From an uncultured Kofleriaceae bacterium (lineage in GTDB: Bacteria > Myxococcota_A > Polyangia > HGW-17), in assembly GCA_964618145.1 (NCBI GenBank), contig CAZTZR010000007.1, positions 2,010 through 66,009 of the forward strand: a stretch of DNA of 64,000 bases. Reading direction: 5' to 3'. Below, piece after piece: positions 5,723-48,968 of the stretch. The notes below the pieces were generated by a model, which was given only the letters and a program-made list of their open reading frames with translations, searched no databases and had not been told where the DNA came from. A program made the translations under genes and the position numbers. The number at the start of each line of letters is the position of its first letter. Position 1 is the first letter of the stretch.

Positions 5723-5879
5723 TCAGCGGATTCCGTTGGATAAATGATTCCATTGGATAAATAAAGATTCATAAATTGATGAAATAAATCCGGAAGGGAC
5801 TTGCCTTTGTCACCCCCCATGGTTAGGATGCAAAACCGGTATTGTTGTTCCCGTTTCCAATTCTGGAACGGTTCGCCTT
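5723..5879. promoter_or_regulatory. AT-rich intergenic island with a tandem direct repeat and a TTCAT-N6-ATGAA palindrome, upstream of the OMP gene.
   Basis: GATTCCGTTGGATAAAT (5729-5745) is followed immediately by GATTCCATTGGATAAAT (5746-5762). TTCATAAATTGATGAA lies at 5768-5783. This is strongly AT-rich in an otherwise ~60% GC context. Confidence 0.35.
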
Positions 5880-6422: not shown

Positions 6423-6441
6423 TTTTTTGATTTTTCCAATC

Positions 6442-7116: not shown

Positions 7117-7177
7117 GGTCCGGCATCCTAGCATAGTTCGGCTCCCTGGCAAATCCTGTTGAATGGTTTTTGGCGGT

Positions 7178-20298: not shown

Positions 20299-20314
20299 GG
20301 CTTCTCCTGCAGGA

Positions 20315-22870
20315 CTAGTCGTCGTCGTCGTCGTCGATGATGACCCGGCGCATGCCTGGTTTCATGACGGGAGGCGGATCCATGGGTGCCGGCATGGGGG
20401 CAACCATCTGAACCGGCATGGGTGCCGGCATGGGCGGATCCATGGGTGCCGGCATGGGTGTGGGTGCCGGCATGGGTGTGGGGGCCGGCATGGGTGTGGA
20501 CATGATGACGATTTCCGTATCCATGACAGGCATCGGACCGCCGGTGATACGGGCCTGGGCCTTCTTGTAGACTTCGGAACTTTCCGGCACGATGCGCAGG
20601 ACCTGGCGGTATTTGTCCCGGGCACCCGGGGCATCTCCCATGTTGTAGGCTTCCTCGTAAATCGCCTGGGCCCGGGTTTCCAGTTGCCTCAGGACGTTGG
20701 AAACATCCTCTCCCATGGCCACAGCCCGGGTATAGGCCTGATAGGCTCCTTCCAGGTTGCCCTGGGCCAGGCGGGCGGCCGCAAGAAGCCTGGCGTTCTT
20801 GCCCAGCCCCGGTCGGCACTCGCCGAGATAGGAACCGCCGAGGGATGCATCACTGGCGACACAGCGGTCATAAGCGGAAAACTGGGACTCGAAATTGGTC
20901 GAGGAGGGATCGATGGTCAGAAATGCGGCGGCCATGGCTTCCAGTGCCGTGGCCTGTGCATTGAGCCGATCCGCGCGTGCTCCGGATTCCTGTTTGGCCA
21001 GATTGCGGGCTTCCTGAGCGGCACCCACAAAATCCTTGGCGTCATATTTGGCCTTGACGGCGGCCGGAAGTCCGGAACCCGAACCGGAACTGCCGGGCCC
21101 GGTGGGAGTCGGGGTCGAGGGCAGGACCACACCAGCGGCCGCCACGAGAAGACCCGGTTCGGCCTTTTCATCGAATGTTGCCTTGTCTGCCACAATGTCG
21201 GCATCAGTGCGGCAGGAATCAATCAGACTGGGTGTGCCTTCAAACTCCTTCAAATGCCTGCGCAGGGCTGCTCCGGAATAGGTTTCCTGGACGATGGTAT
21301 TGCGCAGATCCAGCACTTTTTTGCAGCCAGGATACTCGGTCAGTATTTCATCCAACTTGGCAATGGCTCCCTGTCTTCCCCGGGCGGTCTGCTCACTGGC
21401 CAGACTGGTGGCTTCCGTGATTTTTGTCTGGATGGCAATGTTGTCCGCATTGCGTTTCTGGATGATGCCCTGGGCAACTTTCAGTTGACCGTCATAATAG
21501 GATTTTGCCTTTTCTGCAATCAGATCGGCGATTTCGGACAGATGGCCGGGTGCCTGATTGAGTTTTTCCTCACTTTCGGAAGTGGGGAATCCCGCCCGGT
21601 TCAGTCGCAATTGAACAAAATGGATGGCTTCATCCAGATTTTTTCCGGCGTCCACTTTTTTCCTGGCATTGGCGATGAGTTCACTTTCGGGAGCCAGTTC
21701 CGCGGCTTCCCTGATTTTTTCCAGGGCGGCTTCCCAGTTTACCCGACCGGTGGGAGAGAGTTTGTCTTCACTGATGTAATAGGCGCCTGCTTCCTGCAGG
21801 AGGGCTTCTATCTTCTGTTCCCTTTCCCTGCGGGCAACCACTTCCGGGTCTTCTTTGGGTGCCTCTTTTTTGTCGCCACTGAGTTTGAGTGCGAAAAGCA
21901 TTGCGAAGAGCACAAGGATGACCACCGAAACCACAGCGATCATTTTTTTGCCCCGGGTGTTGAGCAACCTTCCGAGCGCCGAACCGGTCTGCTGGTTCTG
22001 CATCTGGATGGCGGCCTGGGATGGATCGTACGGAAGCACGTTCACGTTGGCGGTGCGGTCATCGGGCATCCCGGGAAATCTTCCCGGCGGTCCCATGGGG
22101 GGCCTTGCGCCGGGTTGCATTCCAGGCGGCATTCCGGGTTGCATTCCGGGCGGCATTCCGGGTTGCATTCCGGGTTGCATTCCAGGCGGCATTCCGGGTT
22201 GCATTCCGGGTTGCATTCCAGGCGGCATTCCAGGCGGCATTCCAGGCGGCATACTCGGCATTCTTCCCGGCGGTCCCATGGGGGGCCTTGCGCCGGGTTG
22301 CATTCCAGGCGGCATTCCGGGTTGCATTCCGGGCGGCATTCCGGGTTGCATTCCGGGTTGCATTCCAGGCGGCATTCCGGGTTGCATTCCGGGTTGCATT
22401 CCGGGCGGCATTCCGGGCGGCATCCCCTGTCCTGGATGACCCCCGGGTCCTCCGGGGGGGCCGCCCGCTCCCCATGCCTGATACATGGTGGGCTTTCTCT
22501 GGGGGGCCGGCTTGGCACCCGACTGTACCGGGACGGATCCGGATACTCCCGCCTGCATCCGGGGATCCATGTATTTCATGCGTGTCTTTCCGGATACAAT
22601 TACATCGCCGTTGGTCAGAACGTGTTCCTTGACCTTGGTGCCGTTGACCTTGGTGCCATTTCCGGAGCCCAGGTCCCTGAGCATGTATCCATCCTTGGAT
22701 GGAATGATGTCGAAATGTTTTCTCGAAACGGAAAGGTCTGCCAGAATGAAAGTGCATTGGGCTCCGCGTCCCACCACCACCGGATTGGCACCTAGCGGAT
22801 ATTTCTTGCCCGTGTCATTTCCTTCGACAATTTCCAGATAAGGTCCGCTAGCAACAGCATTGGGGTCCAT
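20315..22870 (-). CDS. FHA-domain protein (851 aa). It has an N-terminal FHA domain, then a long Pro-Gly-Met low-complexity repeat. This is followed by a TM helix, a periplasmic alpha-helical/TPR-like domain, a PMPAPT repeat and a poly-Asp tail.
   Basis: FHA domain: [25 protein letters not shown]...[26 protein letters not shown] repeats span ~150 aa. TM helix: [22 protein letters not shown]-terminus: [17 protein letters not shown]...[11 protein letters not shown]. Confidence 0.8.
22083..22446. repeat. In-frame tandem duplication (2 x ~183 bp) inside the 851-aa FHA gene, itself built from CATTCC(R)GG(Y)(K)G short repeats.
   Basis: The block cccggcggtcccatggggggccttgcgccgggttgcattccaggcggcattccgggttgcattcc... 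starts at 22083 and again at 22266. It encodes the duplicated [11 protein letters not shown] stretches. Confidence 0.8.
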
Positions 22871-22883
22871 GGCTACCTCACAA

Positions 22884-24296
22884 CTATTCGGAAAGATCCC
22901 GAATGATGACTTCCAGTTTCTGCCTTCTCGGATCCTCTGGCGGGAAGTTTTCCAACTTCTCCTGCAGATCGAGTTGCGTTTTCTTCATCTCCCGGGTGTC
23001 CACCGTGCGCAGGATTTCCTGTGCCTTGCCCAGACTGATGTCAAATATGTGATCCAGTTCCCGGTTGAGAATGGCGATGGTGCGGACAGAGTCCTTGTAC
23101 ATCGCATTGAACTGGGCCATGTCCGGGGTCTCCAGATTCGCGAGTTCCAGCAGGTCGATGACCCTGTAGAATTTGATCAGGCTTTCCCGGTAATTGCTGG
23201 GGTGCTGCTCCCGACGATCAAACTGTTCCTTGGCAAGGGTATAGTCCTCGGACGCCCTTTCCAGATTCGGTTTGGGCAACTGGGTGGTTTTGATGCGCAC
23301 ATAAAAGACGACCCACTGTTCGTTGCCGGAACCCTGTATGGTTTCGGGGTGGTTGTACAGATTCCGGAATTCGAGGATGTTTTCCCCCACATGGAGTTTG
23401 ATTTCGGGGTTTTGTTTGGAGGCCCGATACAAATCCACATAATAGTTGTACTTTGGCTGGTTCGGGGGAGCCCATTCGGCATAGCGCACGCGTTGTCCGT
23501 TCAACAGGATTTCAACTTCCCTGTCTTTTTCGATCATCCCCGCTGCGTATGTCAGCACGACCCGGGTCTCGGGAGCCGCCACCTGGAAGGAGAGTTTGAG
23601 GCTGTGTTTGTGGGGGATGCAGCCATAACATTCCCCGAAATAATTTTCCAGGAAACTGGTCCAGGCATTTTCCCGGTACTCCACCACCACCTCACTTTGA
23701 TCAGGAATCTGCTGGACAACCTTTTCCTTGGGCTGAACCGCCATCAGGATCAGTTTCCCCAGTACCAGGGCCAGCATGACCGCAGTCAGGGTGATTCCCA
23801 GTCGGCCGGTGGGTTTGCTCCAGAGTTGATTGAACTTTTCGCCCATGGAAAGGCTGACCACTTCATGATCCAGTTTTTCCTTCTGTTTGTCGTTCAACTG
23901 GATGACAACCGTGGGTTCTCCTGCGGCTTCGGTGTCAATGTTGGTGAACATGATGTTCACGGTGCCCGCAGTGATGTAGTCACCGTCCTTGAGCACTTCG
24001 GGCTGAACCAGGATTTTTCCGTTGAGCCGGGTACCATTGGAGGAACCTGCATCCTCCACCATGAAAACACCGCGTTTTCCCCATACATGGGCATGGTTGC
24101 GGCTGATGCTGTCATCAATGAGTACAATGGTGTTTTCCTCGGTCCGCCCGATGGTGGCGTCACTTTCGAAATAGTATTCTTCCCCCCGTTGGCGCCCGTC
24201 CTGGATGGTCAGCATGAAACCGGTGGGGGACTCCTTGCGTCCCTTTCCACCGGCGGCTCCGCCGCGTCGATTGTGGTGTCGTCTCTGCTGGGCCAA
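22884..24296 (-). CDS. FHA-domain protein (470 aa) with one TM helix and a periplasmic domain.
   Basis: FHA domain: ATIGRTEENTIVLIDDSISRNHAHV...VEDAGSSNGTRLNG. TM helix: LGITLTAVMLALVLGKLILMAV. Its start abuts the tadC stop (24296/24297). Confidence 0.8.
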   Translation of the reverse strand: MAQQRRHHNRRGGAAGGKGRKESPTGFMLTIQDGRQRGEEYYFESDATIGRTEENTIVLIDDSISRNHAHVWGKRGVFMVEDAGSSNGTRLNGKILVQPEVLKDGDYITAGTVNIMFTNIDTEAAGEPTVVIQLNDKQKEKLDHEVVSLSMGEKFNQLWSKPTGRLGITLTAVMLALVLGKLILMAVQPKEKVVQQIPDQSEVVVEYRENAWTSFLENYFGECYGCIPHKHSLKLSFQVAAPETRVVLTYAAGMIEKDREVEILLNGQRVRYAEWAPPNQPKYNYYVDLYRASKQNPEIKLHVGENILEFRNLYNHPETIQGSGNEQWVVFYVRIKTTQLPKPNLERASEDYTLAKEQFDRREQHPSNYRESLIKFYRVIDLLELANLETPDMAQFNAMYKDSVRTIAILNRELDHIFDISLGKAQEILRTVDTREMKKTQLDLQEKLENFPPEDPRRQKLEVIIRDLSE

Positions 24297-25172
24297 CTAG
24301 ATTCCTCCTGCGCCACTCATGAACGCGTAGACGATGGGTGCGAACAGAACCAGAAAAACCGTGGGGAAGATGCAAATGACCAGGGGAAAAAGCATCTTGA
24401 CCGGGGCTTCATTGGCTTTCTTTTCAGCCAGTTGTGTGCGGTCAATCCGCATCTGGGTGGACTGGATGCGCAGGATTTTTCCGAGGCTTGTTCCCATGCG
24501 ATCCGCCTGGATGAGATTCGTTACGAAAGAGGAAATGGCCATGACCTGGATCCTCTTGGCCATGTTGCGCAGGGATTCTTCGCGGGTGCGACCCATGCGG
24601 ATTTCGGAGAGCATCAGGGAGAACTCGTCGGACAGGGGGCCTGCCTTGGCCTTTTCCACCACCGTTTGGATGGCGGCCTGGAAATCCAGTCCGGCCTCGA
24701 CTGACAGGGTGAGAAGATCCAGCGCATAGGGGAGTGCCCTTACAATCTTTTTCTGCCGGCGCTTGATCTGTTCCCTGAGCCACATGTATGGATACAAAAA
24801 GCCGAAAATGCCTCCGAAAGCCGCCCAGTACAGGGGTTTGTTCAGGGCATTGAGCAAGACCACCATGAACAGGGAGAAAAAGACGGTTCCGAGTTCCTGG
24901 TAAACGAGAAACTCCTCGGCGGTCAGTTCCGGCCTGCCCATGGCGATGAACTTCCATTTCATCTTTTCCCGGTAGGCATCGGAAATGAATTTTGACTGGG
25001 CACGGCCCATCTTGCGGAACAAAAGGGACCTGGCGGTCCTGGCTACGTTGCGCCCGCCACTTTCCTCGGCGGCTTCCGCCAGCAGTTGTGTCGGATACAA
25101 CCCCCAGAAAAGCAGAAAAACGGCCAGTCCCGTCAATCCGATTGCTACCATAAGCATCATGTTGCTATCCAT
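24297..25172 (-). CDS. tadC: TadC-like inner-membrane platform protein (T2SS-F/GspF domain).
   Basis: ~290 aa, polytopic. T2SSF-type helical cytoplasmic domain (LPYALDLLTLSVEAGLDFQAAIQ). Paired with an upstream TadB paralog. Confidence 0.75.
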   Translation of the reverse strand: MDSNMMLMVAIGLTGLAVFLLFWGLYPTQLLAEAAEESGGRNVARTARSLLFRKMGRAQSKFISDAYREKMKWKFIAMGRPELTAEEFLVYQELGTVFFSLFMVVLLNALNKPLYWAAFGGIFGFLYPYMWLREQIKRRQKKIVRALPYALDLLTLSVEAGLDFQAAIQTVVEKAKAGPLSDEFSLMLSEIRMGRTREESLRNMAKRIQVMAISSFVTNLIQADRMGTSLGKILRIQSTQMRIDRTQLAEKKANEAPVKMLFPLVICIFPTVFLVLFAPIVYAFMSGAGGI

Positions 25173-30561: not shown

Positions 30562-30666
30562 GACAATCCTTTCAGTCTGACCTGAGCCATTGCGGTCTTG
30601 CCGGGCTTCATGCCCCCAGGTCCGGGACAGGAGAGGGAGAATAGTGGATTTTCCTGTCTTGTCAAG

Positions 30667-33600
30667 CTATCTGCGGGGAGGGGGCGGAATTTTTCGTTCG
30701 GTAAATCGCGGTTCCGGGATATCCCCTTTTCCGGGCACATGGATGTACTGGTAAAAACCGGGACGGTTGGTGATCTCCATGGTATGGATGGTCATGGTTT
30801 CCTTCCAGAGATCCCGGACAATGATCAACTGATACCGGGCCGGAGGTAAAAACCGGGTGCCGCCGGAGGGACTCTGGAAAAAGCGCAGGAGTTGATCCCG
30901 GCCTTCCGGGTGGTGCGCCAGGGTGATGCCCAGAACCCGGTTGAAGGTGCCGACCGCTCCATAGTCCTCTTCGTCCTTGTCCGGATTTTGCGGGAAACCG
31001 CCTTCCCGTCCCAGAAGCTGGGCCTGCCCTTCGAGATTCCGCACGAACACCAGCATGGAACCCGTGTCGTCCAGAAGTCCGTTCCGCCGTACGCGGGTTC
31101 GCCAGCCATCTGCAGGGATTTCCGGATGACCGGCGAGTTGTGCCAGCCGGATGGCGAACAGATGGCGCGTCGGTGCGAAGGAATGCCGGTGGAGAAGGTG
31201 TTCATAGCCCTGCAGTCCCAGTTCCCAGTTGCCCCGTGCCAGAAGGGTTTCGGCGATCAGGACACGGGGTTCCGGTGCCTGGGGCAGAAGCCAGGAAAGG
31301 AATTCGTATTCGGCCAGGGCATCGGTCAGAAGGCCATGGCGCCGGTAGAAGTCGCCAAGACGTTTGCGGGTCCATGGATCGTGGGGAGCCAGTTCCACGG
31401 AGGTGGAGATCGCCAACTGCGCCAGTATGGGGTTTTCCAGTTTCATGTAGAGTTCAGCCAGTTCTTCCCGCTGTCCCGCAGTGAGATCGTTCCGGTGCAG
31501 CAACTCTTGCCCGCGGACCAGCGCCACATCGGTCTGTTTGACCGGGATTGCGGATCGCATGACAAACAAAGAAAGCGCTGCGTTCTCCGGATCGAGTTTC
31601 TGCCACTTCCGGGCAAATTCATAGATGGCCCTTTCTTGCGCTTCCTGAGTCAGTTTTTTGCCATCCTTTTCATGCCAGCGATCCAGTTCGGCCAGGAATG
31701 ATCCGTAAAGGTTTCCGCCGTGCAGGGACAGTGTCTGGACCACCCAGCGTGCTTCTTCGGTAGTTTTCACGGTCCGCAGGATCTGTTCGCGCAAAAAGCC
31801 GGATACAGCGGAACCTTCGGGGGAAAGGAGCGGTACCAGTGCAAGTTTCTGGCGGATGTCCTGCATGCGCTGGAGTATCACTTCCAGGATGGCCCGCCGG
31901 TCAATCCAGGATTCCAGTTCGCAGGCGGACTGGGCTGCACGGTATAATTGTTCGGCTTGCCAGGCGTTTCCGTTGTAAGGCATTTTCTGACGCCAGGCCC
32001 GTCGCCTTTCCTCCACGGTGGCCCGGGAGAGCCGGGAGCACTCCTGCGGCAGCACCTGGCCGGTGGAGACGAAGGAATAGGTATGTCCGATGGTAACCGG
32101 CTGTCCCGAGGGGGGGGGCGGCAAAGGTGGGGACAGGTTCAGGGCACGGATGATGCACGGCGGAATCGTTGCATCCGTAAGGGTGCTGTTTTTCAGTTCG
32201 ATTTTCTGGAAACGGCCATCGTTTCCAACCACCAGTTCCAGCAACACGGTGCCGCCGGTCATGGGGGCGAATACCGCCTTGCGCTGATAGCACTGGTTTA
32301 CTGCCTCCATGCGATCCCGGCTGTTCAGCAATGACCGGTAATACATTTCCAGCGAGAAACCATGCACCGGAGGTTCCAGGTCCGGCAGGGACAGGCCCGA
32401 GATGGATGACGGCGGCATGTTGCGCAATCCCACGTGCTGGTATTCGGGAAGACGGGGCAGTTCCTGGAAGATGTTTTCCGGGATCTGGCAAAACTCCGGG
32501 GAACTGCCGGAAAAGAAGAAGGAATATCCGGTGTAGGGGGTCACCATCCGGTACTCGGTGGCCAACTGGGCGATGGCCTCGAATCCGGCACCCCGGGCGA
32601 TGAGGTCCTCCAGTCGGGAGGCGGCCCACAATTTGCGCAGAACCTCCGTGTCCGTGGTCACCACGGGGGAAAGGGGCAGGACCACGGAGAAGGATCGGGA
32701 GCCAAAAAATCCTGAGACAATTGCCTTTTCGGGAAGTTTTTCGGCAAATCCCTTGATGAAAAGCGTCGAATTGATCTCGGCGGAGGGGGTGTGAACCGGT
32801 GTGGTGCGACTGACCGAAGGACCCAGGTCTACCCGGATGTCCTTGAATGCCGCAGCTTCCAGTTCCTGCAGGAGTAGTCCCGCCCGGGCGCTGAGATCCC
32901 CCACCTCTTCCACATGAAATGTGCGCCCCAGGGAGGACAGGATGTTGGTTCCGTCCGGTTTTCCCAGGAGGATGCTGGCAAACAGGGGGCTTGGGGAACT
33001 CATGGAAAGCCGGGATGCCAGACGGGATGCAATCATGGGACCCCGGGTGGGTTTTCCGTCACCGACATAAACAATGAGACCCTCTCCGTTGGGAATCAGG
33101 ACGGTGGCCCGTTCGATGGCCAGTCCGAGATCCGTGGCTCCGGCAGGATTCAGCCGGGAGATCTGTTCCAGGAACCGTTCCCGGCGTGCAGAGTTCAGGG
33201 GGGCGAGTCCCTGGTCATCCAGTGCGGTCACGTCTCCCCGCAGGACGAACACGGCCACCCGGGTTTTCTCGTTCATTTTCTCGAAAAGGGATGCAAAGGC
33301 CGTTTTCAGGACCTGGATGCGGGAGGAATCCATGGATGCGGACATGTCCAGCAGGAACACCACTGCCGGTTCCGGAATCCGGGTAGTTGAAGGAAGCATT
33401 TTCGAGATTTTTTCCAGGGGAATGGACAAAAGGAAGGATGCACGTTCACCGGGATCCTTCTCCACCTCGAACAGGGGTTCGTTGGCGGACCGGGGGAACA
33501 CCTCGGCCACAAAGTCCGAAAGCGGCAAAAAGTCGCTGCGCCGAACCATGAACTGCTGGTTTTCCCAGGCGCCTTCCCACCCTGAACGAAGACGGGCGTC

Positions 33601-34686
33601 GGATTCCAGAACGCGAAGGCCGAGTTCAAACTCGGCTGCCCTGGCACCACCGCTCATGGGGTACCGGTACAGGCGACGTCCTCCCACGTCCGAGAGGGTC
33701 TGGACATAGGTCAGCCGGATGCCCACCTCCTCGGCGGGAGGGAGATCCGTCATCAAGGCGCCGAACTCGGCTTCTCCGGTTTGAAAGAAAATGCCGTCAG
33801 TGGATACTTCGGAAAACGCGCCCACAGGAAGGGTGGAGGGGGAGATCCAGACCCCGGACTTCCGGGAGATCGATGCGTCCATGATGACGGAACCCGCAGG
33901 TATGCGCACGCGGTAGTCGGCATCCCTGGATACACTCGATGGATTGAAGAAAACCTGCTCGACTTCCGTAATGGCGGTTCTGCGGCGGATGCGCACGTTT
34001 ACCTTCTGCCGGCGCAGGATCAGTGGTGTTCCCCCCTGTCCCAGTCCTTCCGGACCCCGGGGACGTCCTGTAAGCACTCCATAACCGCTGTCCGACCTTC
34101 CGGCGCGGAACAGGCCACCGGTCCAGTCGGTCCACAACTCGGTGGGCCGGGCCCGGGGGCCTTCGGCACCCAGAAGGAAGGTGCCCCCCCGGAGCCGTTC
34201 CGGTTTCGGGCCGTAATGGACATTCAGTTCCCCCTCCAGATGATGCAGGAGCACACCATCAGGGGATATCGTGATGTTGAATGCAGCCTCGCGACAGGAC
34301 AGCCTGCCCCCGGGAAGGGTCAGATCCCAGTCCTTTTCAGTACGTGCCCGGACCCAGGCCCGGCCGGACAGCAGTTCGGTGCGGGTTGCCGTCACCAGCA
34401 TTTCGGTGCCGGTATCCAGAAGCAGGCTCACCCCGTTGTCCAGGTGAACCGCGGCATGCTGCACGGTCCGGATTTTCCTTCCCGGCAGGAGCCGGAACGG
34501 GGAGGTGCCATTGGAACCTTCCGCGGTGACAGGATGACCCATGGGGTCAACGGTGGCTACGGTTTCCTCGAAACGGACCGAAGGGGCACCATCGGTTTCC
34601 GTGGCGGGAGCGGTTTCCGCGGGAGGTTTGCTGCAATGCAATGCGGGGAGCAGCAACCATACAAGAAGAATGGAGATGTTTCTCAT
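30667..34686 (-). CDS. Giant exported lipoprotein (~1340 aa) built from a FecR-like domain, a VIT domain, a VWA domain and a C-terminal TPR/alpha-helical region.
   Basis: Start MRNISILLVWLLLPALHCS (lipobox). VIT-like: RLYRYPMSGGARAAEFELGLRV. VWA MIDAS-type: VVFLLDMSASMDSSR...GATDLGLAIERA. C-terminal ~450 aa of TPR-like helices. It is a paralog of the upstream gene. Confidence 0.75.
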   Translation of the reverse strand: MRNISILLVWLLLPALHCSKPPAETAPATETDGAPSVRFEETVATVDPMGHPVTAEGSNGTSPFRLLPGRKIRTVQHAAVHLDNGVSLLLDTGTEMLVTATRTELLSGRAWVRARTEKDWDLTLPGGRLSCREAAFNITISPDGVLLHHLEGELNVHYGPKPERLRGGTFLLGAEGPRARPTELWTDWTGGLFRAGRSDSGYGVLTGRPRGPEGLGQGGTPLILRRQKVNVRIRRRTAITEVEQVFFNPSSVSRDADYRVRIPAGSVIMDASISRKSGVWISPSTLPVGAFSEVSTDGIFFQTGEAEFGALMTDLPPAEEVGIRLTYVQTLSDVGGRRLYRYPMSGGARAAEFELGLRVLESDARLRSGWEGAWENQQFMVRRSDFLPLSDFVAEVFPRSANEPLFEVEKDPGERASFLLSIPLEKISKMLPSTTRIPEPAVVFLLDMSASMDSSRIQVLKTAFASLFEKMNEKTRVAVFVLRGDVTALDDQGLAPLNSARRERFLEQISRLNPAGATDLGLAIERATVLIPNGEGLIVYVGDGKPTRGPMIASRLASRLSMSSPSPLFASILLGKPDGTNILSSLGRTFHVEEVGDLSARAGLLLQELEAAAFKDIRVDLGPSVSRTTPVHTPSAEINSTLFIKGFAEKLPEKAIVSGFFGSRSFSVVLPLSPVVTTDTEVLRKLWAASRLEDLIARGAGFEAIAQLATEYRMVTPYTGYSFFFSGSSPEFCQIPENIFQELPRLPEYQHVGLRNMPPSSISGLSLPDLEPPVHGFSLEMYYRSLLNSRDRMEAVNQCYQRKAVFAPMTGGTVLLELVVGNDGRFQKIELKNSTLTDATIPPCIIRALNLSPPLPPPPSGQPVTIGHTYSFVSTGQVLPQECSRLSRATVEERRRAWRQKMPYNGNAWQAEQLYRAAQSACELESWIDRRAILEVILQRMQDIRQKLALVPLLSPEGSAVSGFLREQILRTVKTTEEARWVVQTLSLHGGNLYGSFLAELDRWHEKDGKKLTQEAQERAIYEFARKWQKLDPENAALSLFVMRSAIPVKQTDVALVRGQELLHRNDLTAGQREELAELYMKLENPILAQLAISTSVELAPHDPWTRKRLGDFYRRHGLLTDALAEYEFLSWLLPQAPEPRVLIAETLLARGNWELGLQGYEHLLHRHSFAPTRHLFAIRLAQLAGHPEIPADGWRTRVRRNGLLDDTGSMLVFVRNLEGQAQLLGREGGFPQNPDKDEEDYGAVGTFNRVLGITLAHHPEGRDQLLRFFQSPSGGTRFLPPARYQLIIVRDLWKETMTIHTMEITNRPGFYQYIHVPGKGDIPEPRFTERKIPPPPRR

Positions 34687-34696
34687 GGTGTTACCT

Positions 34697-37600
34697 CTAT
34701 TTCTCCGAAACCACGGTGATCTGGTTTCCCGCAATCTGCAGGGTGATCTGTTTTTTGCCCTTTTCAAATGTCACGGCCTTTTTGAACAGGGTTTCCCCAT
34801 CGGTGCCTTCCTGCAGGATGATCAGGATCTCGGCTTCCAGGGGACGCAAACTGTCGGCATCGGCCCTTTCGACCCTGAGAAACACGGAAGAGGGAAGTTT
34901 GGCCATGACCGCCGCCTGCAGGCCGAAAGCGGGCCTGACAAAGGGAACCCGGCCAAGGTCTTCCAGAGAAGGTCCCCAAAGGAACTCCAGATCGGCCTTG
35001 GGATGTTTGTGGGTGAGCAGGATCTTCACCGCCTCGTCATCCCGGAACAGGGCCATCATGCGGCCGCGGTTCAGGATGGTCTGGCGGATGGCGGTGGCGG
35101 CATCCATCCGCATGCGTGCCAGGAACAGGCAGCCGAAAAACCGGGCCAGTTTCACCGGGTCGCTTCCCGGATCTCCGGATGTCAGGATTTCCTCCACCAG
35201 ACCGAGGGACTTTTCGAACTCCCCGGTATCCTCATAGGCATCGGCCAGGTACAACCGGGCTTCGATACTGTTCTGCACCAGCGCGGAGTAGGAAAGGAAC
35301 TCCCGCACGGCAAGTTCCTTCCAGCCGAAGGCACGGTACAACTGTCCCAGCATGCGACGTCGTCCCGGGTTGCTGGGGGCGAATTCGACGATTTCCGACA
35401 GAAGGCGCCTGGCCCGTACGTTGTCATCACGGCGCAGGGCATATTCCACGGCTTCCAGTCGCAATTCGTCGTCCAGAAGCGGGTTTCCGAACAACCTCTG
35501 CACCAGTTCGTCCGCACGGGTGAACATGGATTCGGTTTCGAAAATCCGCAGCAATCGCATGGTGAGCCACGGGTCTTCGGGACTCGCCAGCCGCAGTTTC
35601 TGCAGGATGGCCATGCGCTCGGATGCATTGGTCGCCTTTTCCAGCATTTCCTCGATCTTGACGCGTTCCAGCGTGGTTCCCAGTCCCAGGTGGCGACGCA
35701 CATACAGGATGTCCTCCACCTTGGTGATCCGGGCCAGTATGGCGGTGCGCAGCAGGTCGGAAAAACCGTGCTCCGGCACAAAGAGTTTGTAGAATTCCAC
35801 CATCACCTGGATGGTGGGCATGACGGAAACCGCACTTCGCAGGAACAGCATCCGGGCATGGGCGGTGGGTGCCTCGCATTGCCGGATGGCATCCTGGAAC
35901 AATTCCATGACCCGCCAGGGATTGGCGCCGGCCAGGCGTTCACGCCAGCCACCCACACGCTGCCACAGGGGCAGTTTCGAGAGGGCCGAACAGGGGCTGG
36001 GCTGCCGGGAGATGGAACAGTCATGGCAGATGATGAGGGTATTTTCCGCCAGTTTTGTCAACTCGGAGGCATTGGACTGGAACAACGACAGTCCACTGAT
36101 GTCGGAATCCGGGGCAGAGCGATAACCATCCAGACCCCTTTGGGCCGGGGTTTGCCGGCCCCCTTCCTTTTCACGGGCCCCACGGGGGTCTTCCCTCCGC
36201 TGGCGGCCAGACGTCCGGTCACTGCCCTCGATGCCTGTTCCACCGGCGAACGGCCGGGCTTCACCAGTGACAACCGGTTGGTCCCGGGATTTTTCCGGGG
36301 TTATGGCCCTTGGACGTCCGGGTCTGGCAGGTCGTGGAGGGGGAACTGGAGCAGGGGCGGAACCGGGGGCCTGGGGCACACTGGTGGTTGGCATGGGTTC
36401 CGGGGCCGGGGCACTGAAGGAAGGTGCGGAATCCGCGGATAACTGCATTGCCCCGAATGTTTTCAGGGTTCTGGTGTCACGGGGTCCCCTTTCTGCTGGT
36501 GCTTCGGCGACTTCCTCCCTTTTCAGCCTGTCACCCTTTGCCTCTTCCATCTCCGCGGCGTCTTCCTGATCCTGCAGTTTCTCGTCATCCAGGGCGGCTT
36601 CGGCAGCGGTGGGAACATACAGCGAGGTGAACGGTGTCACCAGTTCATACCGGAGCCCCAGATCCAGCAGTTCCTCGGGGGATGCGTTGTCCTGGATATA
36701 CTGGAGAAGCCGGTGATAGGCCCAGCGGCGTGGCAGTTCCTTTCCCTGGGTGAAGCGACCCCAACTCACGGGAAAGGAGCGTTCCCAGGGCTGTCCGTCC
36801 AGTTGGCCCCGCAATACGATCCTGGAGGGAAGTTGCGTGGTGGAGGCGTGGCCGACCACCACGAGGTCCTCCCCGGGTTGTACGGTAAACCGTCCGCGGG
36901 GGTATGGTTGCAACAAGGCTGCCCGGTCGAAGTCAACCTCGGCATTCCGCAGTTGCGGTCGTCTCAACTGGTTCATCCAGGGGGAAAGCAGCCGCAGGTC
37001 TCCGGGTTCGGTGACCTTCAGGGGGGGGACGTCCCCGGCCAGACGGGTCAGGATGTCCAGTCCCGGACCATCGGCAATGGCCACGGCGCGAAAGGCCACA
37101 AATACGGGAAGTTCCGCCCAGGTGCGGGCGATGAGATCCGCATCCAGTATCCCGACGGTGGGCACTCCATTGCCAACATACAAGAGCACCGGCGAGGTTC
37201 CCGGAATGAATTCGGAGAAGACGCCCGCGGCTTCCTCCAGCAGACCGGAGAGATCGGTGGCGCCTCCTTTCTTCTGGCTGGACAGGTGTTCCAGAAGGGG
37301 GACGGGGTCCTCCTGTCCGATGGTGACAAAGGCATTGGCCTTGCGCAGGGAGGTGTCCCCTGAAACAATGGTCACCTTGTCCCCCGGTTGCAGGGAGGCC
37401 ATGAGATTTTCCACCAGGGATCTGGACATCTGGAACTGGGCAGGCGTGGTGTCGGCGCTGACATCCACCAGGATGGCCAGATGCAGTTTCCTGGACAGTT
37501 CCTCCGCGGTTGTGAAGGGACGCAGACGGATCATGGCGTGATCTCCCCGCTGGACAGAGGGCCTGTCACGGCCGGCCGGCCGGTCGTACCAGCCCAGGGC

Positions 37601-38899
37601 CTGTTGCGGATTCAATCCGTCATCCAGGAGTTCCACATGCAGATCCGAAGTGGTCTGGAAATCCGAGGCGCTCTTGCGAAGACGTTCGCCTTCCACGAAA
37701 AGGCCGAGGTTGGCCCTGAAAGTTCTGGCGCCTGCATCCTTGAGTTGCACGGTTAGCGAAAATTCACCGATTTCGGGGGACAGCCCATCGGCTCCCAGCA
37801 TGGGAAGCGAATACATGCGGCGGTCGCGGCCTTCCCCCATGCGGGACAGCCATGTGGTGTAGCGGATGAAGACCTTGCGCCGGGAACCTCCGGGGATCGG
37901 GTAGATCGAAGCGCGGTAGCGGCCTTCCTCCTCCCATTCCAGAAGCGCGGGGTCTTCACGGGATCCTGCATAGACATGGCTTTCGTACTGGGTTCTGGCC
38001 ATTTCCTTGCCCTTGATCTTGCCGAAAACCATGCGTCCGTCCCGGTCCACAGCGAAGCCGGTGACCAGGGCGTGTTCCGGGGCGCCGAAGCGGTAGATGC
38101 CTTCCAGGGTGTTGCGGGTGGGGTTCAGGAACTCCTGGGTCACCTCCGTGACGGCGAGATCCCCCAGAATGCGTACATTCACATCCATTGAAGTGATGAC
38201 AAGCGGGATGTGAGCCTTGCCCAGATCGCCGGGGTTGCGGGCTCCCAGAACCCCTTGTCCGGGGACCAGATCCATGCCGGGTTCGGGTTTGAATTCCAGT
38301 CCGCCGGCAGTGCTCTGCCACCAGCGCAAAGGCTGGATGCGCTGAACCGCATCCTGTCCGGTTGCCTGGGCGTCATTGCCAGAATGGCCGTGACCCAGCC
38401 GCAACAGGTGACCGGCCTTGACGAGATGGCGGCTGCCGTCCAGGACGGCCAGGATTTCGCCGGAGATCACCCGGAGAACGGGTTCCTGATCATCGGCGAT
38501 TTCCACAATGGCATCCTGCCCGCGGATACTCCATTCCTTCCAGGAGAAATCTGCCGCGATTCCTGCGGGAAATTCCACCCATACGCTTCCGTCGGATACC
38601 GCCGGATGGCGTTCCTGCACGAGGCTGGCGTTGGGCAGAAGGTGAATGCGGACTCCATTTTCGTGGGTGACCAGGGCGAATCCCTCTCCGGTGGAAAGTT
38701 TGTCACCGGGGGAGAGCAATGTCCTTCCGGAAAGGGGTCTGGAGTTCGTCAGGCACTGGCCACGAATGCACTCAGCATGGGCCACGGAGGGGACGTAATC
38801 CTCCGTCCGATCCTTTTCGGGAGGACTTTTATCACAATGTATCAACAGAAAAATGCCGGTAAACAGAAGGACAAAATGGAATGGCCGGAATGGATGCAT
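34697..38899 (-). CDS. Giant exported lipoprotein (~1400 aa). It has the FecR-like, VIT and VWA domains, then a Pro-rich linker and a C-terminal TPR region. It is a paralog of 30667..34686.
   Basis: Start MHPFRPFHFVLLFTGIFLLIHCD (lipobox). VIT-like: FGKIKGKEMARTQYES. VWA: LAILVDVSADTTPAQF...GGATDLSGLLEEAA. Pro-rich linker: PAPEPMPTTSVPQAPGSAPAPVPPPRPARPGRP. 10-nt gap to the downstream paralog. Confidence 0.75.
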   Translation of the reverse strand: MHPFRPFHFVLLFTGIFLLIHCDKSPPEKDRTEDYVPSVAHAECIRGQCLTNSRPLSGRTLLSPGDKLSTGEGFALVTHENGVRIHLLPNASLVQERHPAVSDGSVWVEFPAGIAADFSWKEWSIRGQDAIVEIADDQEPVLRVISGEILAVLDGSRHLVKAGHLLRLGHGHSGNDAQATGQDAVQRIQPLRWWQSTAGGLEFKPEPGMDLVPGQGVLGARNPGDLGKAHIPLVITSMDVNVRILGDLAVTEVTQEFLNPTRNTLEGIYRFGAPEHALVTGFAVDRDGRMVFGKIKGKEMARTQYESHVYAGSREDPALLEWEEEGRYRASIYPIPGGSRRKVFIRYTTWLSRMGEGRDRRMYSLPMLGADGLSPEIGEFSLTVQLKDAGARTFRANLGLFVEGERLRKSASDFQTTSDLHVELLDDGLNPQQALGWYDRPAGRDRPSVQRGDHAMIRLRPFTTAEELSRKLHLAILVDVSADTTPAQFQMSRSLVENLMASLQPGDKVTIVSGDTSLRKANAFVTIGQEDPVPLLEHLSSQKKGGATDLSGLLEEAAGVFSEFIPGTSPVLLYVGNGVPTVGILDADLIARTWAELPVFVAFRAVAIADGPGLDILTRLAGDVPPLKVTEPGDLRLLSPWMNQLRRPQLRNAEVDFDRAALLQPYPRGRFTVQPGEDLVVVGHASTTQLPSRIVLRGQLDGQPWERSFPVSWGRFTQGKELPRRWAYHRLLQYIQDNASPEELLDLGLRYELVTPFTSLYVPTAAEAALDDEKLQDQEDAAEMEEAKGDRLKREEVAEAPAERGPRDTRTLKTFGAMQLSADSAPSFSAPAPEPMPTTSVPQAPGSAPAPVPPPRPARPGRPRAITPEKSRDQPVVTGEARPFAGGTGIEGSDRTSGRQRREDPRGAREKEGGRQTPAQRGLDGYRSAPDSDISGLSLFQSNASELTKLAENTLIICHDCSISRQPSPCSALSKLPLWQRVGGWRERLAGANPWRVMELFQDAIRQCEAPTAHARMLFLRSAVSVMPTIQVMVEFYKLFVPEHGFSDLLRTAILARITKVEDILYVRRHLGLGTTLERVKIEEMLEKATNASERMAILQKLRLASPEDPWLTMRLLRIFETESMFTRADELVQRLFGNPLLDDELRLEAVEYALRRDDNVRARRLLSEIVEFAPSNPGRRRMLGQLYRAFGWKELAVREFLSYSALVQNSIEARLYLADAYEDTGEFEKSLGLVEEILTSGDPGSDPVKLARFFGCLFLARMRMDAATAIRQTILNRGRMMALFRDDEAVKILLTHKHPKADLEFLWGPSLEDLGRVPFVRPAFGLQAAVMAKLPSSVFLRVERADADSLRPLEAEILIILQEGTDGETLFKKAVTFEKGKKQITLQIAGNQITVVSEK

Positions 38900-39040
38900 G
38901 ACAGGACCTCCGTCGATTTCAAATAAAGACAGAAAATTGTATGCCCAAAAAAGGAAGTTGTACAGCTAAACCCGTCATCCGGGGTTCGGGGGCAAACAGT
39001 CAACAAGATACTGATGAAGGGGGTGGATCTCACTCCACAT

Positions 39041-39841
39041 TCAATTGCAAATGGCTTCACACAATTGTACGAAGACTTCGGGAAGGGCAATTCCGGGGGT
39101 GGAAAAATCCGGGTCGGAGAACCTGACAATCCGGGGGCGGCGCCGGAACGGGACGCGGTTCCAGGCATTGTCTGTCGTGTCCGTTGTCAAGTCGATGATG
39201 ACGTCCGGCTGCAGGTGGACAAGGGTTTCCAGACTCAATGCAGGGTATGCAGCCGGACCTTCGGGGAGAGTCCGGGCGGCACCACACAGGTGGACGAGTT
39301 CATCCATATAGGTGCCTGGACCTGCTGCCACCAGATGGGCCAGGGAACCGGAATCCCTGCCGAGGGTGACCAGAACCCGGGGAACGGAGGGACAGGTGCG
39401 GGGCTGCAGACGTCTGCTGATTTCGTCCACGAGCCGTGCCGCCTCCTGGCCAGTGCCCGTGGCTGCCCCCAGTTTCAGGATGGACTCCCGCACTTCCCCG
39501 ATGGAACGGGTTGGCAGGGAAAGGACGGGAATGCCGATGGAACGCAGTTTCTGGCGGGCGTCATGATGAAGTTCCGAAACAAGCACCAGATCGGGTTTCA
39601 GGCGGGCAACGGTTTCAATGTCCACATCCAGGAATCCCCCCACCCGGGGCAAAAATTTCACTTCACCTGGCTTGGTGTCGTACCGGGTGACTCCCACAAT
39701 CCGGGGACCGAGTCCCAGGGCGAATGCCATCTGGGTCAGGGAGGGGGAACAAGAAACAATCCGTCTTGCACCGGAACCGGATGGGGTGTTCCGGCAACCG
39801 GAATGCAGAAGCAGAAGGCAGGTGAAAAATGCTCTTGTCAT
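39041..39841 (-). CDS. Periplasmic substrate-binding protein of an ABC transporter (BtuF/FecB-like class III; cobalamin or iron-siderophore type).
   Basis: Lipoprotein signal (LLLLHSGC). The RIVSCSPSLTQMAFALG...RIVGVT and PDLVLV motifs are typical of BtuF-family binding proteins. Confidence 0.7.
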   Translation of the reverse strand: MTRAFFTCLLLLHSGCRNTPSGSGARRIVSCSPSLTQMAFALGLGPRIVGVTRYDTKPGEVKFLPRVGGFLDVDIETVARLKPDLVLVSELHHDARQKLRSIGIPVLSLPTRSIGEVRESILKLGAATGTGQEAARLVDEISRRLQPRTCPSVPRVLVTLGRDSGSLAHLVAAGPGTYMDELVHLCGAARTLPEGPAAYPALSLETLVHLQPDVIIDLTTDTTDNAWNRVPFRRRPRIVRFSDPDFSTPGIALPEVFVQLCEAICN

Positions 39842-39875: not shown

Positions 39876-39951
39876 GCGGGATTAACTCAGTTGGCAGAGT
39901 GTCAGCTTCCCAAGCTGAATGTCGCGGGTTCGAATCCCGTATCCCGCTCCA
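39876..39951 (+). tRNA. tRNA-Gly (anticodon CCC).
   Basis: Manual fold. The acceptor GCGGGAT pairs with ATCCCGC. The D-arm is CTCA/AGAG with loop GTTGGC. The anticodon stem TCAGC/GCTGA encloses loop TTCCCAA (anticodon CCC). The T-arm GCGGG-TTCGAAT-CCCGT is followed by discriminator T and an encoded CCA. Confidence 0.9.
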
Positions 39952-47046: not shown

Positions 47047-47180
47047 AACAAGTGTTTTTCATTCAAACGCACACAGGGTGAAACTTTTTGCTTGCGGGCA
47101 AAAGGCCTCTGTATATATATTCCCCATGTCTATGGTATGGGCATCTGTTGCCGTTTGCGCCGTTGGCAAGGAGAAACACG

Positions 47181-48968
47181 ATGGTGAAATTCCGTTGGAA
47201 ATCGTTGATGTTCATTGCGTCCATTCTGACCGTGACCGTGGCTTTGCCCGCTTTTGCCCAGCGCAAAAAGGCAAAGACAGCGGAACCGGAAGAAGAGGAA
47301 ATGATCTTCGAAGCCGAAGATGTATCCAAAACCCTTGTTTCCAAGAAAATGGTGCGGGGTGAGGACTTCCTCAAAAAGGCTGAACGCGGAATGGCCCAGA
47401 GCGCTCCCCAGGAGCAGATTCTGGTTTATCTCCAGAGTTCCACCATCTACCTGAAGCAGGTTCTGGAAAAGGACAACCGCGAGGACTCCTTCGATACCAA
47501 GCAGAAGGCGCAGTACCTCATGGGAAAATGCCTGTATTATCTCGGGTATTACTCTGCCTCCAAAAACTACTTTGAACGCATTGTGGATCAGGGGGATGCC
47601 CACCCCTACTACAAGATGACCCTGAAATACCTGGTATCCTTGCAGCAGAAAATGCCCGAATCCGCAGGCATTCTGCCCCAGATCGGCAAATACAGCGAGG
47701 AGTATCTGGAAGACAAGGAACTGGCCAATTTCCGTTCCCAGTTGCTGTACTACCTTGGCCGCTACCATTACGTGGACGGGCGCCTGGAGAAGGCCGCCGA
47801 GATGTTCGCGAAGGTGGCGCCGAGCACCCGGACCGCAGAGGGCGGGTACTACCTGAAGAGCAAGGTGTTCGAAGGCATTACCATGGTGCGCCTCGGCAAG
47901 CCGGTGGACGCCATCAAACGCTTCAACTCCATCATCATTTTTGCCCAGAAGAATCCTACGTTCCCGGAAATCGGGGACTATCTGGAACTGGCCAACCTTT
48001 CGCTGGCCCGTGTGTACTACCAGGCCGGCCGTGTTGCCATCGGCGCCTTCGCGCAGACCCGCAAGGGCAATTTCGCGAAACTCGCGGAAAAATACCTGAC
48101 ACTTTCCATTGCCTTTTTCGAAAAGGTTCCCCAGAACAGCCACAACTGGCTGCAGAGCCTGTTTGAACAGTCCTGGGCCTACTTCATCCTGGATGCCATG
48201 CTCCGCCCGCACTTCAAGAAAGACTACGGCGGCTTCCAGAAGGCACTCGGAAACATCCACACACTCAATGCTCCCTTCTTCGAGAACTTTTTCTTCCCGG
48301 AATCACTGATCCTCCGGGCAGTCATCTATTTCCAGAACTGCCGCATCAACGAGGCGAACGAAGCCCTCGCCGAATTCGGTCGCGTATATCCCAAAATGCA
48401 ACTGGAGGTTCGCGAGGTTTCCGACAAGCACAAGATGGATGACGACGATGATGATCAGGCGTATTTCAAGTATGTCCAGAACATCCTTGCCGACAAGGCC
48501 GGTCTGAATCCCCGCCTGTCCCGCCTGGTGAAGAGTGCCCTTCGGGACCGCACCTTCGAGCGCCGCATCGAGTTCATTGACGAACTGAACCGGGAAATCA
48601 AACAGGTCAACGCCTCGGACCGCAGTTGGGCCAGTTCCGACATCGCCCGCGAAATCCGCGAGGATCTGGAGTTCCAGAAAATCAACGCCGAAACCGAAGC
48701 TGGAAAACTGGCCCGTGACCGCATCCGCCGTCTGGATGATGAACTCACCCGCCTGGTTCTCCAGTATGGTGACGTGAAGATCGAACTGAACAACCTGCGT
48801 CTGCGTCGTGTGACCGCCCGGGCCAAGGCATCCCAGACCACCAAGGTGGATGTCATGAACGTGGTTGTCGATGACGAACATGTGATCTGGCCGTTCACCG
48901 GCGAATACTGGCAGGACGAACTGGGATACTACCGTTTCATCGTTCGTTCCACCTGTGGCAGCAACTGA
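47181..48968 (+). CDS. Exported TPR-repeat protein (595 aa) with an internal poly-Asp run.
   Basis: Signal peptide MVKFRWKSLMFIASILTVTVALPAFAQ. Multiple TPR-like helical hairpins (YYLGYYSASKNYFERIV..., LARVYYQAGR...). HKMDDDDDDQAYF. C-terminal coiled-coil. Confidence 0.7.
   Translation: MVKFRWKSLMFIASILTVTVALPAFAQRKKAKTAEPEEEEMIFEAEDVSKTLVSKKMVRGEDFLKKAERGMAQSAPQEQILVYLQSSTIYLKQVLEKDNREDSFDTKQKAQYLMGKCLYYLGYYSASKNYFERIVDQGDAHPYYKMTLKYLVSLQQKMPESAGILPQIGKYSEEYLEDKELANFRSQLLYYLGRYHYVDGRLEKAAEMFAKVAPSTRTAEGGYYLKSKVFEGITMVRLGKPVDAIKRFNSIIIFAQKNPTFPEIGDYLELANLSLARVYYQAGRVAIGAFAQTRKGNFAKLAEKYLTLSIAFFEKVPQNSHNWLQSLFEQSWAYFILDAMLRPHFKKDYGGFQKALGNIHTLNAPFFENFFFPESLILRAVIYFQNCRINEANEALAEFGRVYPKMQLEVREVSDKHKMDDDDDDQAYFKYVQNILADKAGLNPRLSRLVKSALRDRTFERRIEFIDELNREIKQVNASDRSWASSDIAREIREDLEFQKINAETEAGKLARDRIRRLDDELTRLVLQYGDVKIELNNLRLRRVTARAKASQTTKVDVMNVVVDDEHVIWPFTGEYWQDELGYYRFIVRSTCGSN

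Follow-up and report, generated by a model that had tools for sequence, protein, structure and literature searches.

A conserved tandem pair of large FecR-VIT-VWA-TPR proteins in polyangial Myxococcota: candidates for a periplasmic capture-and-docking scaffold

Introduction

What is the role of two neighbouring genes that encode lipoprotein-type proteins of 1400 and 1339 amino acids (aa) in a myxobacterium? The question is raised by a stretch of 64,000 nucleotides (nt) from an uncultured Kofleriaceae bacterium (assembly GCA_964618145.1, contig CAZTZR010000007.1, positions 2,010 to 66,009), here called the window, in which gene A and, directly downstream, gene B are located. Polyangial myxobacteria have some of the most complex envelopes and some of the largest genomes among bacteria, and most of their big envelope proteins are without an assigned function. 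Comparison with homologs identifies A and B as an ancient two-gene module of polyangial Myxococcota (Polyangiaceae, Sandaracinaceae and Kofleriaceae-like organisms) and shows that, across the family, the two paralogs have divided ancestral features between them. An earlier note on the same DNA had described the two genes as tandem paralogs and is taken up below where our results bear on it; the points that we add are a TonB-C-terminal-domain (TonB-CTD)-like domain in B, the asymmetry between A and B and the deep conservation of the pair.

Two old paralogs with a common domain plan

The earlier note had A and B as adjacent and co-directional genes separated by 10 nt, which is confirmed by the coordinates of the open reading frames (ORFs) and by BLASTP. 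Gene A starts with an ATG preceded at 7 nt by GGAGG, the gap runs from the TAG of A to the ATG of B, and a GAGG is present ahead of the latter. Of the protein lengths given before, 1400 aa is correct for A, while the 1340 aa for B include the stop codon. BLASTP aligns A with B over 765 aa at 24% identity (E 5e-26) and over 290 aa of the C-terminal region at 27% (E 2e-17), a similarity far beyond chance by which they are classified as genuine paralogs of considerable age. Neither ORF is interrupted, identical A and B proteins are present on a separately assembled contig in ENA, proteins from public assemblies are 100% identical to A (P0001) and to B (P0121), and orthologs align along their full length with 59-72% identity. 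A pseudogene or an assembly artefact is ruled out by the intact ORFs, the independent contig and the full-length orthologs; a pseudogene copy is among the findings that the note had named as speaking against its view. That the two proteins follow the same modular plan is borne out by Pfam and NCBIfam matches, AlphaFold2 models and domain profiles (Table 1).

VIT domains had been assigned to both proteins and are indeed recovered by domain search, with 82.5 bits in A and 28.6 bits in B, both exceeding the Pfam cutoff of 26.5 bits; the VIT of A also matches the sequence of ITIH1 (PDB 6fpy) with E 1.5e-4. In B, a VWA_2 domain (42 bits, cutoff 27) is located after the VIT and displays a canonical metal-ion-dependent adhesion site (MIDAS) made up of D447-x-S449-x-S451, T518 and D543. 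A itself is without a Pfam VWA match; its ortholog P0002 passes PF00092 with 26.9 bits (cutoff 23.8). The corresponding residues of A are D479-x-S481-x-D483, T548 and N577, i.e., DxSxD with Asn in the place of Asp. The motifs DMSAS, GATD and VGDG are kept in all aligned B-type orthologs, and DVSAD, GATD and VGNG in all aligned A-type orthologs. Metal-ion dependence, claimed for the VWA domains of both proteins, fits the canonical site of B and is doubtful for the degenerate one of A.

An AlphaFold2 model of residues 19-1200 of B, calculated from an alignment of 84 sequences, reached a pLDDT (predicted local distance difference test) score of 86.4 and a predicted TM-score (pTM) of 0.81. Because ITIH1 (6fpy) is ranked first when this model is compared with the PDB by Foldseek (E 1e-22, target TM-score 0.60, 583 columns), we read the predicted core of VIT, VWA and following beta-sandwich as ITIH-like or 'integrin-like'. 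The VIT-VWA cores of A and B span window positions ~36965-38197 and ~32854-34077, respectively. A preprint describes a 6_3 knot in the AlphaFold models of ITIH-like proteins with VIT and VWA (bioRxiv 10.1101/2023.06.16.545156). With ITIH1 and other VIT-VWA proteins, the pair shares the combination of VIT, MIDAS-bearing VWA and subsequent beta-sandwich in one integrin-like unit, but the window proteins are bacterial and of the lipoprotein type, they carry additional FecR-like, TonB-CTD-like, TPR and C-terminal sandwich domains, the identity to ITIH1 is only 15% and one of the two sites, that of A, is degenerate. No sign of the C-terminal processing motif of ITIH proteins was noticed in the window proteins, though no formal test for it was made. 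A VIT-VWA core and partial matches to hidden Markov models (HMMs) are likewise shared with the marine sortase targets of TIGR03788 and the XrtN/PEP-CTERM VIT proteins. The pair differs from these in that it scores 40.7 and 68.8 bits against a TIGR03788 cutoff of 551.65 and in that the C-termini of A and B end in a beta-sandwich and have neither an LPXTG nor a PEP-CTERM signal. Scores far under the cutoffs and the missing sorting signal led us to discard the idea that A and B are sortase, PEP-CTERM or XrtN substrates.

The N-termini of both proteins are of the lipoprotein type, as had been claimed. Measured against the pattern [LVI][ASTVI][GAS]-C, a hydrophobic region and a conserved Cys aligning with the lipobox Cys of the orthologs are present in A and in B, and it is the residue at position -1 that departs from the pattern, being an atypical His in both; in about 20 orthologs this position is occupied by Ala, Ser or Gly. 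The His codons are given at 38834-38836 (before Cys22 of A) and 34636-34638 (before Cys18 of B). Other lipoprotein-like N-termini encoded in the window are canonical (FLVSC, LLSC, HSGC), and the His at -1 constitutes a parallel atypical change in the two partners. In the B-type protein of Chondromyces, an N-terminal transmembrane anchor replaces the lipobox. The sequences of A and B contain no cytoplasmic or transmembrane segment.

A FecR-like beta domain had been ascribed to both proteins. The top PDB matches of a profile built from the N-termini of the family, A being one of its members, are PupR, a protein of the FecR type (6ovk, E 1.3e-3), and 4m0n, an anti-sigma factor from Bacteroides (E 5.6e-3). 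B on its own matches Pfam FecR (PF04773) with E 2e-4 and 22.2 bits, which is below the cutoff of 24, the Chondromyces B-type protein reaches 24.1 bits, and A alone gives no Pfam FecR match. The FecR-like periplasmic beta domain is what the A/B family probably has in common with the FecR/PupR anti-sigma factors of extracytoplasmic function (ECF) sigma factors. Unlike in these, both a cytoplasmic anti-sigma domain and a transmembrane helix are missing from A and B; they possess short signal peptides that end in Cys, with the lipobox-like motif at the position of the transmembrane anchor. No sigma gene is adjacent to the pair, the neighbours being a BtuF-like gene and rplU-rpmA-obg, and an STN-like subdomain was not detected in either protein.

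A and B also differ in the middle region. B contains a TonB-CTD-like domain of the AgmX/PglI (GltJ/GltG) type, which matches NF033768 with 34.3 bits when the whole protein is searched and with 40.0 bits, exactly the cutoff, as an isolated domain; a weak Pfam TonB_2 match is also obtained. The 11 best PDB matches of a profile of the middle domain are all TonB CTDs (E 2.6e-5 to 1e-3). NF033768 is matched by 16 of 16 middle domains from the family and the GltG C-terminus by 13 of 16, down to E 2e-36. The domain is characterized by two invariant Cys residues ('myxo_SS_tail' signature), and its topology in the AlphaFold2 model of B is alpha-alpha-beta-beta-alpha-beta, with a disordered stretch in front (residues 746-764). 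In A it is replaced by a linker of low complexity (14% Ala, 13% Pro, 11% Arg, 10% Glu), which is the extra Pro-rich linker already reported for the upstream copy (residues 766-940); the modelled part of the linker, residues 940-957, has a pLDDT below 50. A itself is without the TonB-CTD-like domain, and none of 14 A-type orthologs matched the TonB-like profile. The likeness of B to GltG (PglI) and GltJ (AgmX), which belong to the gliding machinery of Myxococcus, and to TonB lies in this two-Cys domain and is not shared by A. B differs from all three in having no N-terminal transmembrane helix for a motor of the ExbBD/TolQR/AglRQS type. It lacks the cytoplasmic FHA, zinc-ribbon and GYF domains of GltG/GltJ, its domain is internal instead of C-terminal and is fused to a TPR solenoid of its own, and the whole protein scores 13.4 bits against the GltG equivalog, for which the cutoff is 650.

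The C-terminal region had been described as about 450 aa of TPR/helical structure in both proteins. Its TPR part stands (pLDDT 86 and 93), but only about 310 aa are helical, and a beta-sandwich of some 110 aa comes after them. Residues 940-1400 of A were modelled with a pLDDT of 93.4; Foldseek finds generic consensus-TPR superhelices only for this C-terminal model (E 3e-6), and Pfam TPR matches in A are weak. C970 and C1008 at the start of the TPR region of A occupy columns that are invariant in 68 sequences, and this pair, like the conserved one of the TonB-like domain, fits an oxidising, extracytoplasmic location. The C-terminal beta-sandwich, which bears an invariant His-Pro (HP) motif, has diverged in B, where the family profile still matches residues 1275-1328 with E 5e-10. 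Its sequence profile found no relative in the PDB. An exhaustive HMMER search with the C-terminal module of A returned 449 representatives at 50% identity, always with the module at the C-terminus of proteins of 1,300-1,600 aa. The search gave no occurrence in other protein families, the shorter matches that we examined resembling fragments, and the C-terminal beta-sandwich accordingly appears to be family-specific.

Taken as a whole, the pair resembles an ITIH/integrin-type capture module fused to periplasmic docking domains and represents an uncharacterised, lineage-specific family made of known parts. Judged by its single domains, it falls into the VIT, VWA, FecR-like, TonB-CTD (NF033768) and TPR families, whereas it does not count among the FecR anti-sigma factors, the TonB/GltG/GltJ family, the sortase-target VIT proteins or the Bat proteins. 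It unites three well-studied kinds of periplasmic domains in one polypeptide, i.e., a FecR sensor, a TonB/GltG docking and an integrin-like VWA domain.

An ordered pair that divided its features

Homologs that carry a specific organism name all stem from Myxococcota, among them Chondromyces crocatus, Plesiocystis pacifica and metagenome-assembled genomes of Sandaracinaceae, Polyangiaceae and Kofleriaceae. Their names do not go beyond 'hypothetical', 'VIT domain-containing', 'FecR domain-containing', 'TonB family' or 'AgmX/PglI C-terminal domain-containing', apart from some that have been automatically annotated as 'Ca-activated chloride channel family' or 'Mg-chelatase subunit ChlD'. These last annotations, together with VWA and TPR domains in envelope-associated proteins, which are the domain vocabulary of BatA-E, might point at a VWA-TPR system of the Bat/MoxR type that serves aerotolerance or chaperone-assisted metal insertion. 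In the Bat system, VWA and TPR domains are spread over several short proteins, BatA and BatB having about 330 aa. Bat proteins are not known to have VIT, FecR or TonB-CTD domains; an architecture with lipobox, these three domains and a size of 1,340-1,400 aa is unlike that of BatA/B. Neither a MoxR-type AAA+ gene nor a Bat-like gene for a short transmembrane VWA protein was seen among the window genes scanned, and a Bat-specific Pfam or NCBIfam match was not obtained. We consider a Bat-type aerotolerance function highly improbable and excluded it on the grounds of the different architecture and of a MoxR/Bat context absent from the window genes scanned. The earlier note had mentioned routinely single-copy, Bat-type homologs as a finding that would speak against its view; as a rule, however, the homologs occur in pairs and have no functional annotation.

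A scan of one genome per species yielded no fewer than 460 related loci. In 51 of the loci fetched, a second, co-directional paralog follows directly after the first, and about 12 with enough downstream DNA are single. Most of the single loci represent a third, A-type copy in Sandaracinaceae genomes that also have a pair. Unpaired A-type copies were noted at the Sandaracinaceae loci L002, L022, L025, L027, L033, L053 and L079, and a pair and an unpaired copy occur in the same genome, for example L063 with L022, L029 with L033 and L065 with L079. In Chondromyces crocatus, the pair consists of proteins of 1499 and 1419 aa whose genes overlap by 4 nt. In a neighbour-joining tree of the VIT-VWA core, first and single genes form one clade and second genes a basal grade, the sub-clades of the second genes mirroring those of the first. 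The simplest reading would be one ancient tandem duplication followed by co-divergence. The duplication seen by the earlier note in the tandem arrangement is thereby upheld, but not as a local event: it appears to be ancient and co-inherited across Polyangia. What emerges is a widespread family, nearly always in the form of an ordered pair, with a minimum of 449 clusters (50% identity) and of 460 genomic loci.

First and second genes differ consistently in their features. The canonical Ser at the fifth MIDAS position is found in 0 of 52 first genes, in 21 of 52 second genes and in all eight outgroup sequences. A TonB-CTD-like domain is encoded by 50 of 50 second and 16 of 50 first genes; the C-terminal beta-sandwich, as judged by the family profile, by 49 of 50 first and 32 of 50 second genes. 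B-type proteins, as far as these profiles tell, always have the TonB-CTD-like domain, and the canonical MIDAS is kept in the clade of the window. A-type proteins, by the same comparison, never have a canonical MIDAS, often have a linker instead of the TonB-CTD and almost always a recognisable sandwich.

It could be argued that A and B are independent, redundant or diverged paralogs that are adjacent merely as a consequence of tandem duplication. Unpaired copies in Sandaracinaceae would be in line with this, as would the pTM of 0.81, which suggests that B folds compactly alone. The A-first/B-second order is, however, kept across deep divergence with tight spacing or even overlap, and the complementary losses (MIDAS and TonB-CTD in A-type proteins, divergence of the C-terminal sandwich in B-type proteins) fit partners that share ancestral roles. 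We regard independent action of the two proteins as improbable.

The order glycosyltransferase, BtuF-like, A, B, rplU-rpmA-obg, kinase is conserved among close relatives only, and clustering of ORFs within 6 kb of the pair at about 85 loci did not reveal a conserved third gene beyond these relatives. OmpA-TSP3 and Plug-domain neighbours at two loci (L003, L004) were considered as partners and dismissed, as they did not generalise to other loci.

Kinship with anti-sigma factors and location in the envelope

In the proteins of the nearest outgroup, the same FecR-VIT-VWA region is preceded by an N-terminus of the zinc-finger anti-sigma type; TPR is present in some of them and the C-terminal beta-sandwich in none. 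The gene for P0079, the only outgroup locus examined, follows an ECF sigma gene at a distance of 15 nt, and the relatives P0089 and P0105 feature a fused sigma-70 region 4. The A/B family is, on the basis of shared domains, kin to FecR-type proteins with anti-sigma-type N-termini, and this kinship suggests that it acts in the periplasm and not at the surface. An evolutionary route is indicated that would lead from sensors of the anti-sigma type to lipid-anchored scaffolds. As an observation apart, the outgroup relative at positions 4366-9194 of locus L085, which is located 15 nt behind an ECF sigma gene, joins its zinc-finger anti-sigma-type N-terminus to a FecR-VIT-VWA region of about 1,000 aa or more, and proteins of the P0079 type would form a class of ECF anti-sigma sensors that are very large and uncharacterised.

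Given this ancestry, A and B may be envelope sensors that still signal: having detected a periplasmic ligand with the FecR-VIT-VWA head, they might, for instance, act in trans on an ECF sigma/anti-sigma pair or on a Ser/Thr kinase and modulate it. The anti-sigma-type N-termini in front of the same head in the nearest outgroup, the ECF sigma gene adjoining P0079 and the sigma-70 region 4 fused to a few relatives would agree with such a function, and so would the Ser/Thr kinase genes that are found close to A and B in the window and to the pair at roughly one in four related loci. Against it stands the absence from A and B of any cytoplasmic or transmembrane segment that could carry the signal, and there is neither an adjacent sigma or anti-sigma gene nor a conserved neighbour. 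Kinase genes were counted near the pair at 24 of 84 loci, which by our own estimate is about the background for the kinase-rich Myxococcota, and for this reason we rejected the kinase association. Continued signalling appears unlikely to us.

A different location is implied if the two proteins are surface-exposed outer-membrane lipoprotein adhesins, with VIT-VWA heads that bind matrix, substratum or prey, in the manner of CglB or of eukaryotic ITIH proteins and integrins, and a duplication that widens the range of ligands and does not serve to form a complex. This would be compatible with the ITIH-like/integrin-like fold, the canonical MIDAS of B, the lipoprotein-type N-termini and the presence of a GltC-like gene about 8 kb off in the window, and the VWA lipoprotein CglB of M. 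xanthus is reported to be a surface adhesin (PMC9946355). The anti-sigma-type N-termini of the outgroup and the transmembrane helix of the Chondromyces B-type protein, however, place the same domains in the periplasm. To our knowledge, wherever FecR-like and TonB-CTD-like domains have been characterised, they serve for docking in the periplasm. In addition, the MIDAS of first genes is never canonical, and the link to a Glt-like cluster is absent from the flanks of other loci. We consider an adhesin function unlikely, too.

A possible capture-and-docking scaffold

For the pair as such we infer, in agreement with the earlier note, a cell-envelope complex. Our preferred interpretation, to which we assign a probability of roughly 0.45, is that A and B constitute a heteromeric scaffold for capture and docking in the periplasm which descends from an anti-sigma sensor, with B as the active binding and docking subunit. 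Both proteins would be exported, tethered to a membrane and oriented towards the periplasm, as suggested by their signal peptides with lipoboxes, by the Cys pairs that are conserved and by the relatives anchored in the inner membrane. They would act together as a heteromer, a notion that builds on the short distance between the genes, their constant order, the mirroring of the two trees and the complementary way in which features have degenerated. The MIDAS of B may capture an acidic residue of a partner protein, and B may dock by way of its TonB-CTD-like domain, through beta-strand augmentation, onto an outer-membrane or TPR partner. Docking by strand addition is proposed in analogy to TonB on TonB boxes and to GltG/GltJ on GltD; the TonB-CTD-like domains of GltG and GltJ have been modelled in complex with the periplasmic TPR protein GltD (PMC11761067). 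A, with its silenced MIDAS and its long flexible linker, would be a non-catalytic scaffold or spacer. The module would represent the head of an anti-sigma sensor which, its cytoplasmic output having been lost, has become a scaffold of the envelope.

Several points weigh against a periplasmic scaffold of this kind. Adjacency and co-divergence are equally expected for proteins that act separately in one pathway, an extra, unpaired copy exists in Sandaracinaceae and an A-type gene can stand alone at its locus. In pairs of the Sandaracinaceae type, both MIDAS motifs are non-canonical, so that metal-dependent capture by B is not a family-wide property. The domain profiles behind the tallies were built from the family itself, lipidation of the window's own A and B is uncertain because of the His at -1, and in the literature we found no paper on this family.

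A more far-reaching version of the proposal would have A and B form an integrin-style periplasmic heterodimer with one active and one silenced metal site, both subunits being membrane-tethered. B would be plugged by its GltG/GltJ-type TonB-CTD into a trans-envelope machinery of the Glt/Nfs-like kind or into a TonB-dependent outer-membrane machinery, mechanical load would be transmitted or sensed across the peptidoglycan and the linker of A would serve as a spacer. We regard this version as quite improbable; if true, it would describe a hitherto undescribed class of envelope-spanning mechano-adaptors that evolved from an anti-sigma sensor. If a Glt/Nfs-type or a TonB-dependent outer-membrane complex is the docking partner in the scaffold proposed above, a new component of envelope-spanning machines would have been found. 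Nothing about the A/B pair contradicts current understanding; that the genes are paired and that features are divided between them is clear-cut and open to testing. Handles for mutation are the MIDAS residues of B, the TonB-CTD-like domain of B and the linker of A, and Chondromyces crocatus is available as a culturable host.

Genomic context and further observations in the window

The features of the two genes and of their immediate surroundings are compiled in Table 1. The promoter-like sites listed there and the absence, in a pattern scan, of a terminator-like site between A and B would be consistent with an A-B operon; these are pattern matches only. One of these sites starts 2 nt past the stop codon of B, and the ribosomal operon rplU-rpmA-obg is probably transcribed on its own although it follows directly after B. 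Further downstream, obg is followed by a Ser/Thr kinase gene and an RcpC/CpaB gene. On the other side, the BtuF-like gene and the tRNA-Gly that the earlier note had mentioned just beyond the pair were found at 39041-39841 and 39876-39951.

Table 1. Positions in the window of gene A, gene B, their predicted domains and adjacent elements
Feature	Residues	Positions	Strand	Basis or remark
Gene A, upstream paralog	1400 aa	34697-38899	-	ORF and translation
A, signal peptide with lipobox-like LLIH-C22		38834-38899	-	Cys aligns with lipobox Cys of orthologs (FLSC, LAGC, LFAC)
A, FecR-like beta domain	~28-191	38327-38818	-	aligns with that of B; family profile matches A 37-174
A, VIT	235-347	37859-38197	-	Pfam PF08487, E 3e-23, 82.5 bits
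A, VWA-like, degenerate MIDAS		36965-37534	-	aligns with VWA of B
A, disordered Pro/Ala/Arg/Glu-rich linker	766-940 (175 aa)	36080-36604	-	replaces TonB-CTD-like domain
A, TPR-like alpha-solenoid, 19 helices	972-1281	35057-35986	-	AlphaFold2
A, C-terminal nine-strand beta-sandwich	1291-1399	34703-35029	-	AlphaFold2, alignment
Gene B, downstream paralog	1339 aa (1340 codons with stop)	30667-34686	-	ORF and translation
B, signal peptide with lipobox-like PALH-C18		34633-34686	-	Cys aligns with lipoboxes of orthologs (ALSC, LLGC, LTAC)
B, FecR-like beta domain	37-180	34147-34578	-	Pfam FecR; all-beta in AlphaFold2 model
B, VIT and associated beta region	204-423	33418-34077	-	Pfam VIT, 28.6 bits; AlphaFold2 model
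B, VWA, canonical MIDAS	424-611	32854-33417	-	Pfam VWA_2, E 1.6e-10
B, post-VWA beta-sandwich and two helices	612-711	32554-32853	-	AlphaFold2; completes ITIH-like core
B, TonB-C-terminal-like domain, AgmX/PglI (GltJ/GltG) type	779-872	32071-32352	-	NF033768
B, TPR-like alpha-solenoid	885-1199	31090-32034	-	AlphaFold2; aligns with C-terminal region of A
B, diverged C-terminal beta domain	1200-1339	30670-31089	-	partial alignment, HP motif retained
Promoter-like site TGTACA-17-TACAAT, upstream of A		38936-38964	-	consensus scan 9/12; pattern match only
Promoter-like site TTGACA-16-TATTCT, in front of rplU-rpmA-obg		30638-30665	-	consensus scan 10/12; pattern match only
BtuF-like Peripla_BP_2 gene		39041-39841	-	neighbour of A
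tRNA-Gly(CCC)		39876-39951	+	beyond BtuF-like gene

About 8 kb upstream of gene A, positions 47088-48968 (+) encode a GltC-like TPR protein of 626 aa (NCBIfam NF033756, E 1e-72, 246 bits, equivalog cutoff 450), and the next gene, at 49034-52651 (+), a TPR protein of 1205 aa. The two look like part of an envelope cluster of the Glt/Nfs type as known from gliding or spore-coat formation. No GltC-like matches were obtained in the flanks of other loci, and a tie between this cluster and the pair was rejected for this reason.

Some other genes of the window may be mentioned. A sigma-54 activator with N-terminal FHA and GAF domains is encoded at 1511-3304 (+). A type III secretion/FliI-type ATPase (ATP-synt_ab and T3SS_ATPase_C) resides at 16711-18216 (+), with several large ORFs without a Pfam match close by at 18387-24704, and a single ORF at 10344-11858 (+) encodes a fusion of PyrB, the catalytic, and PyrI, the regulatory part of aspartate carbamoyltransferase.

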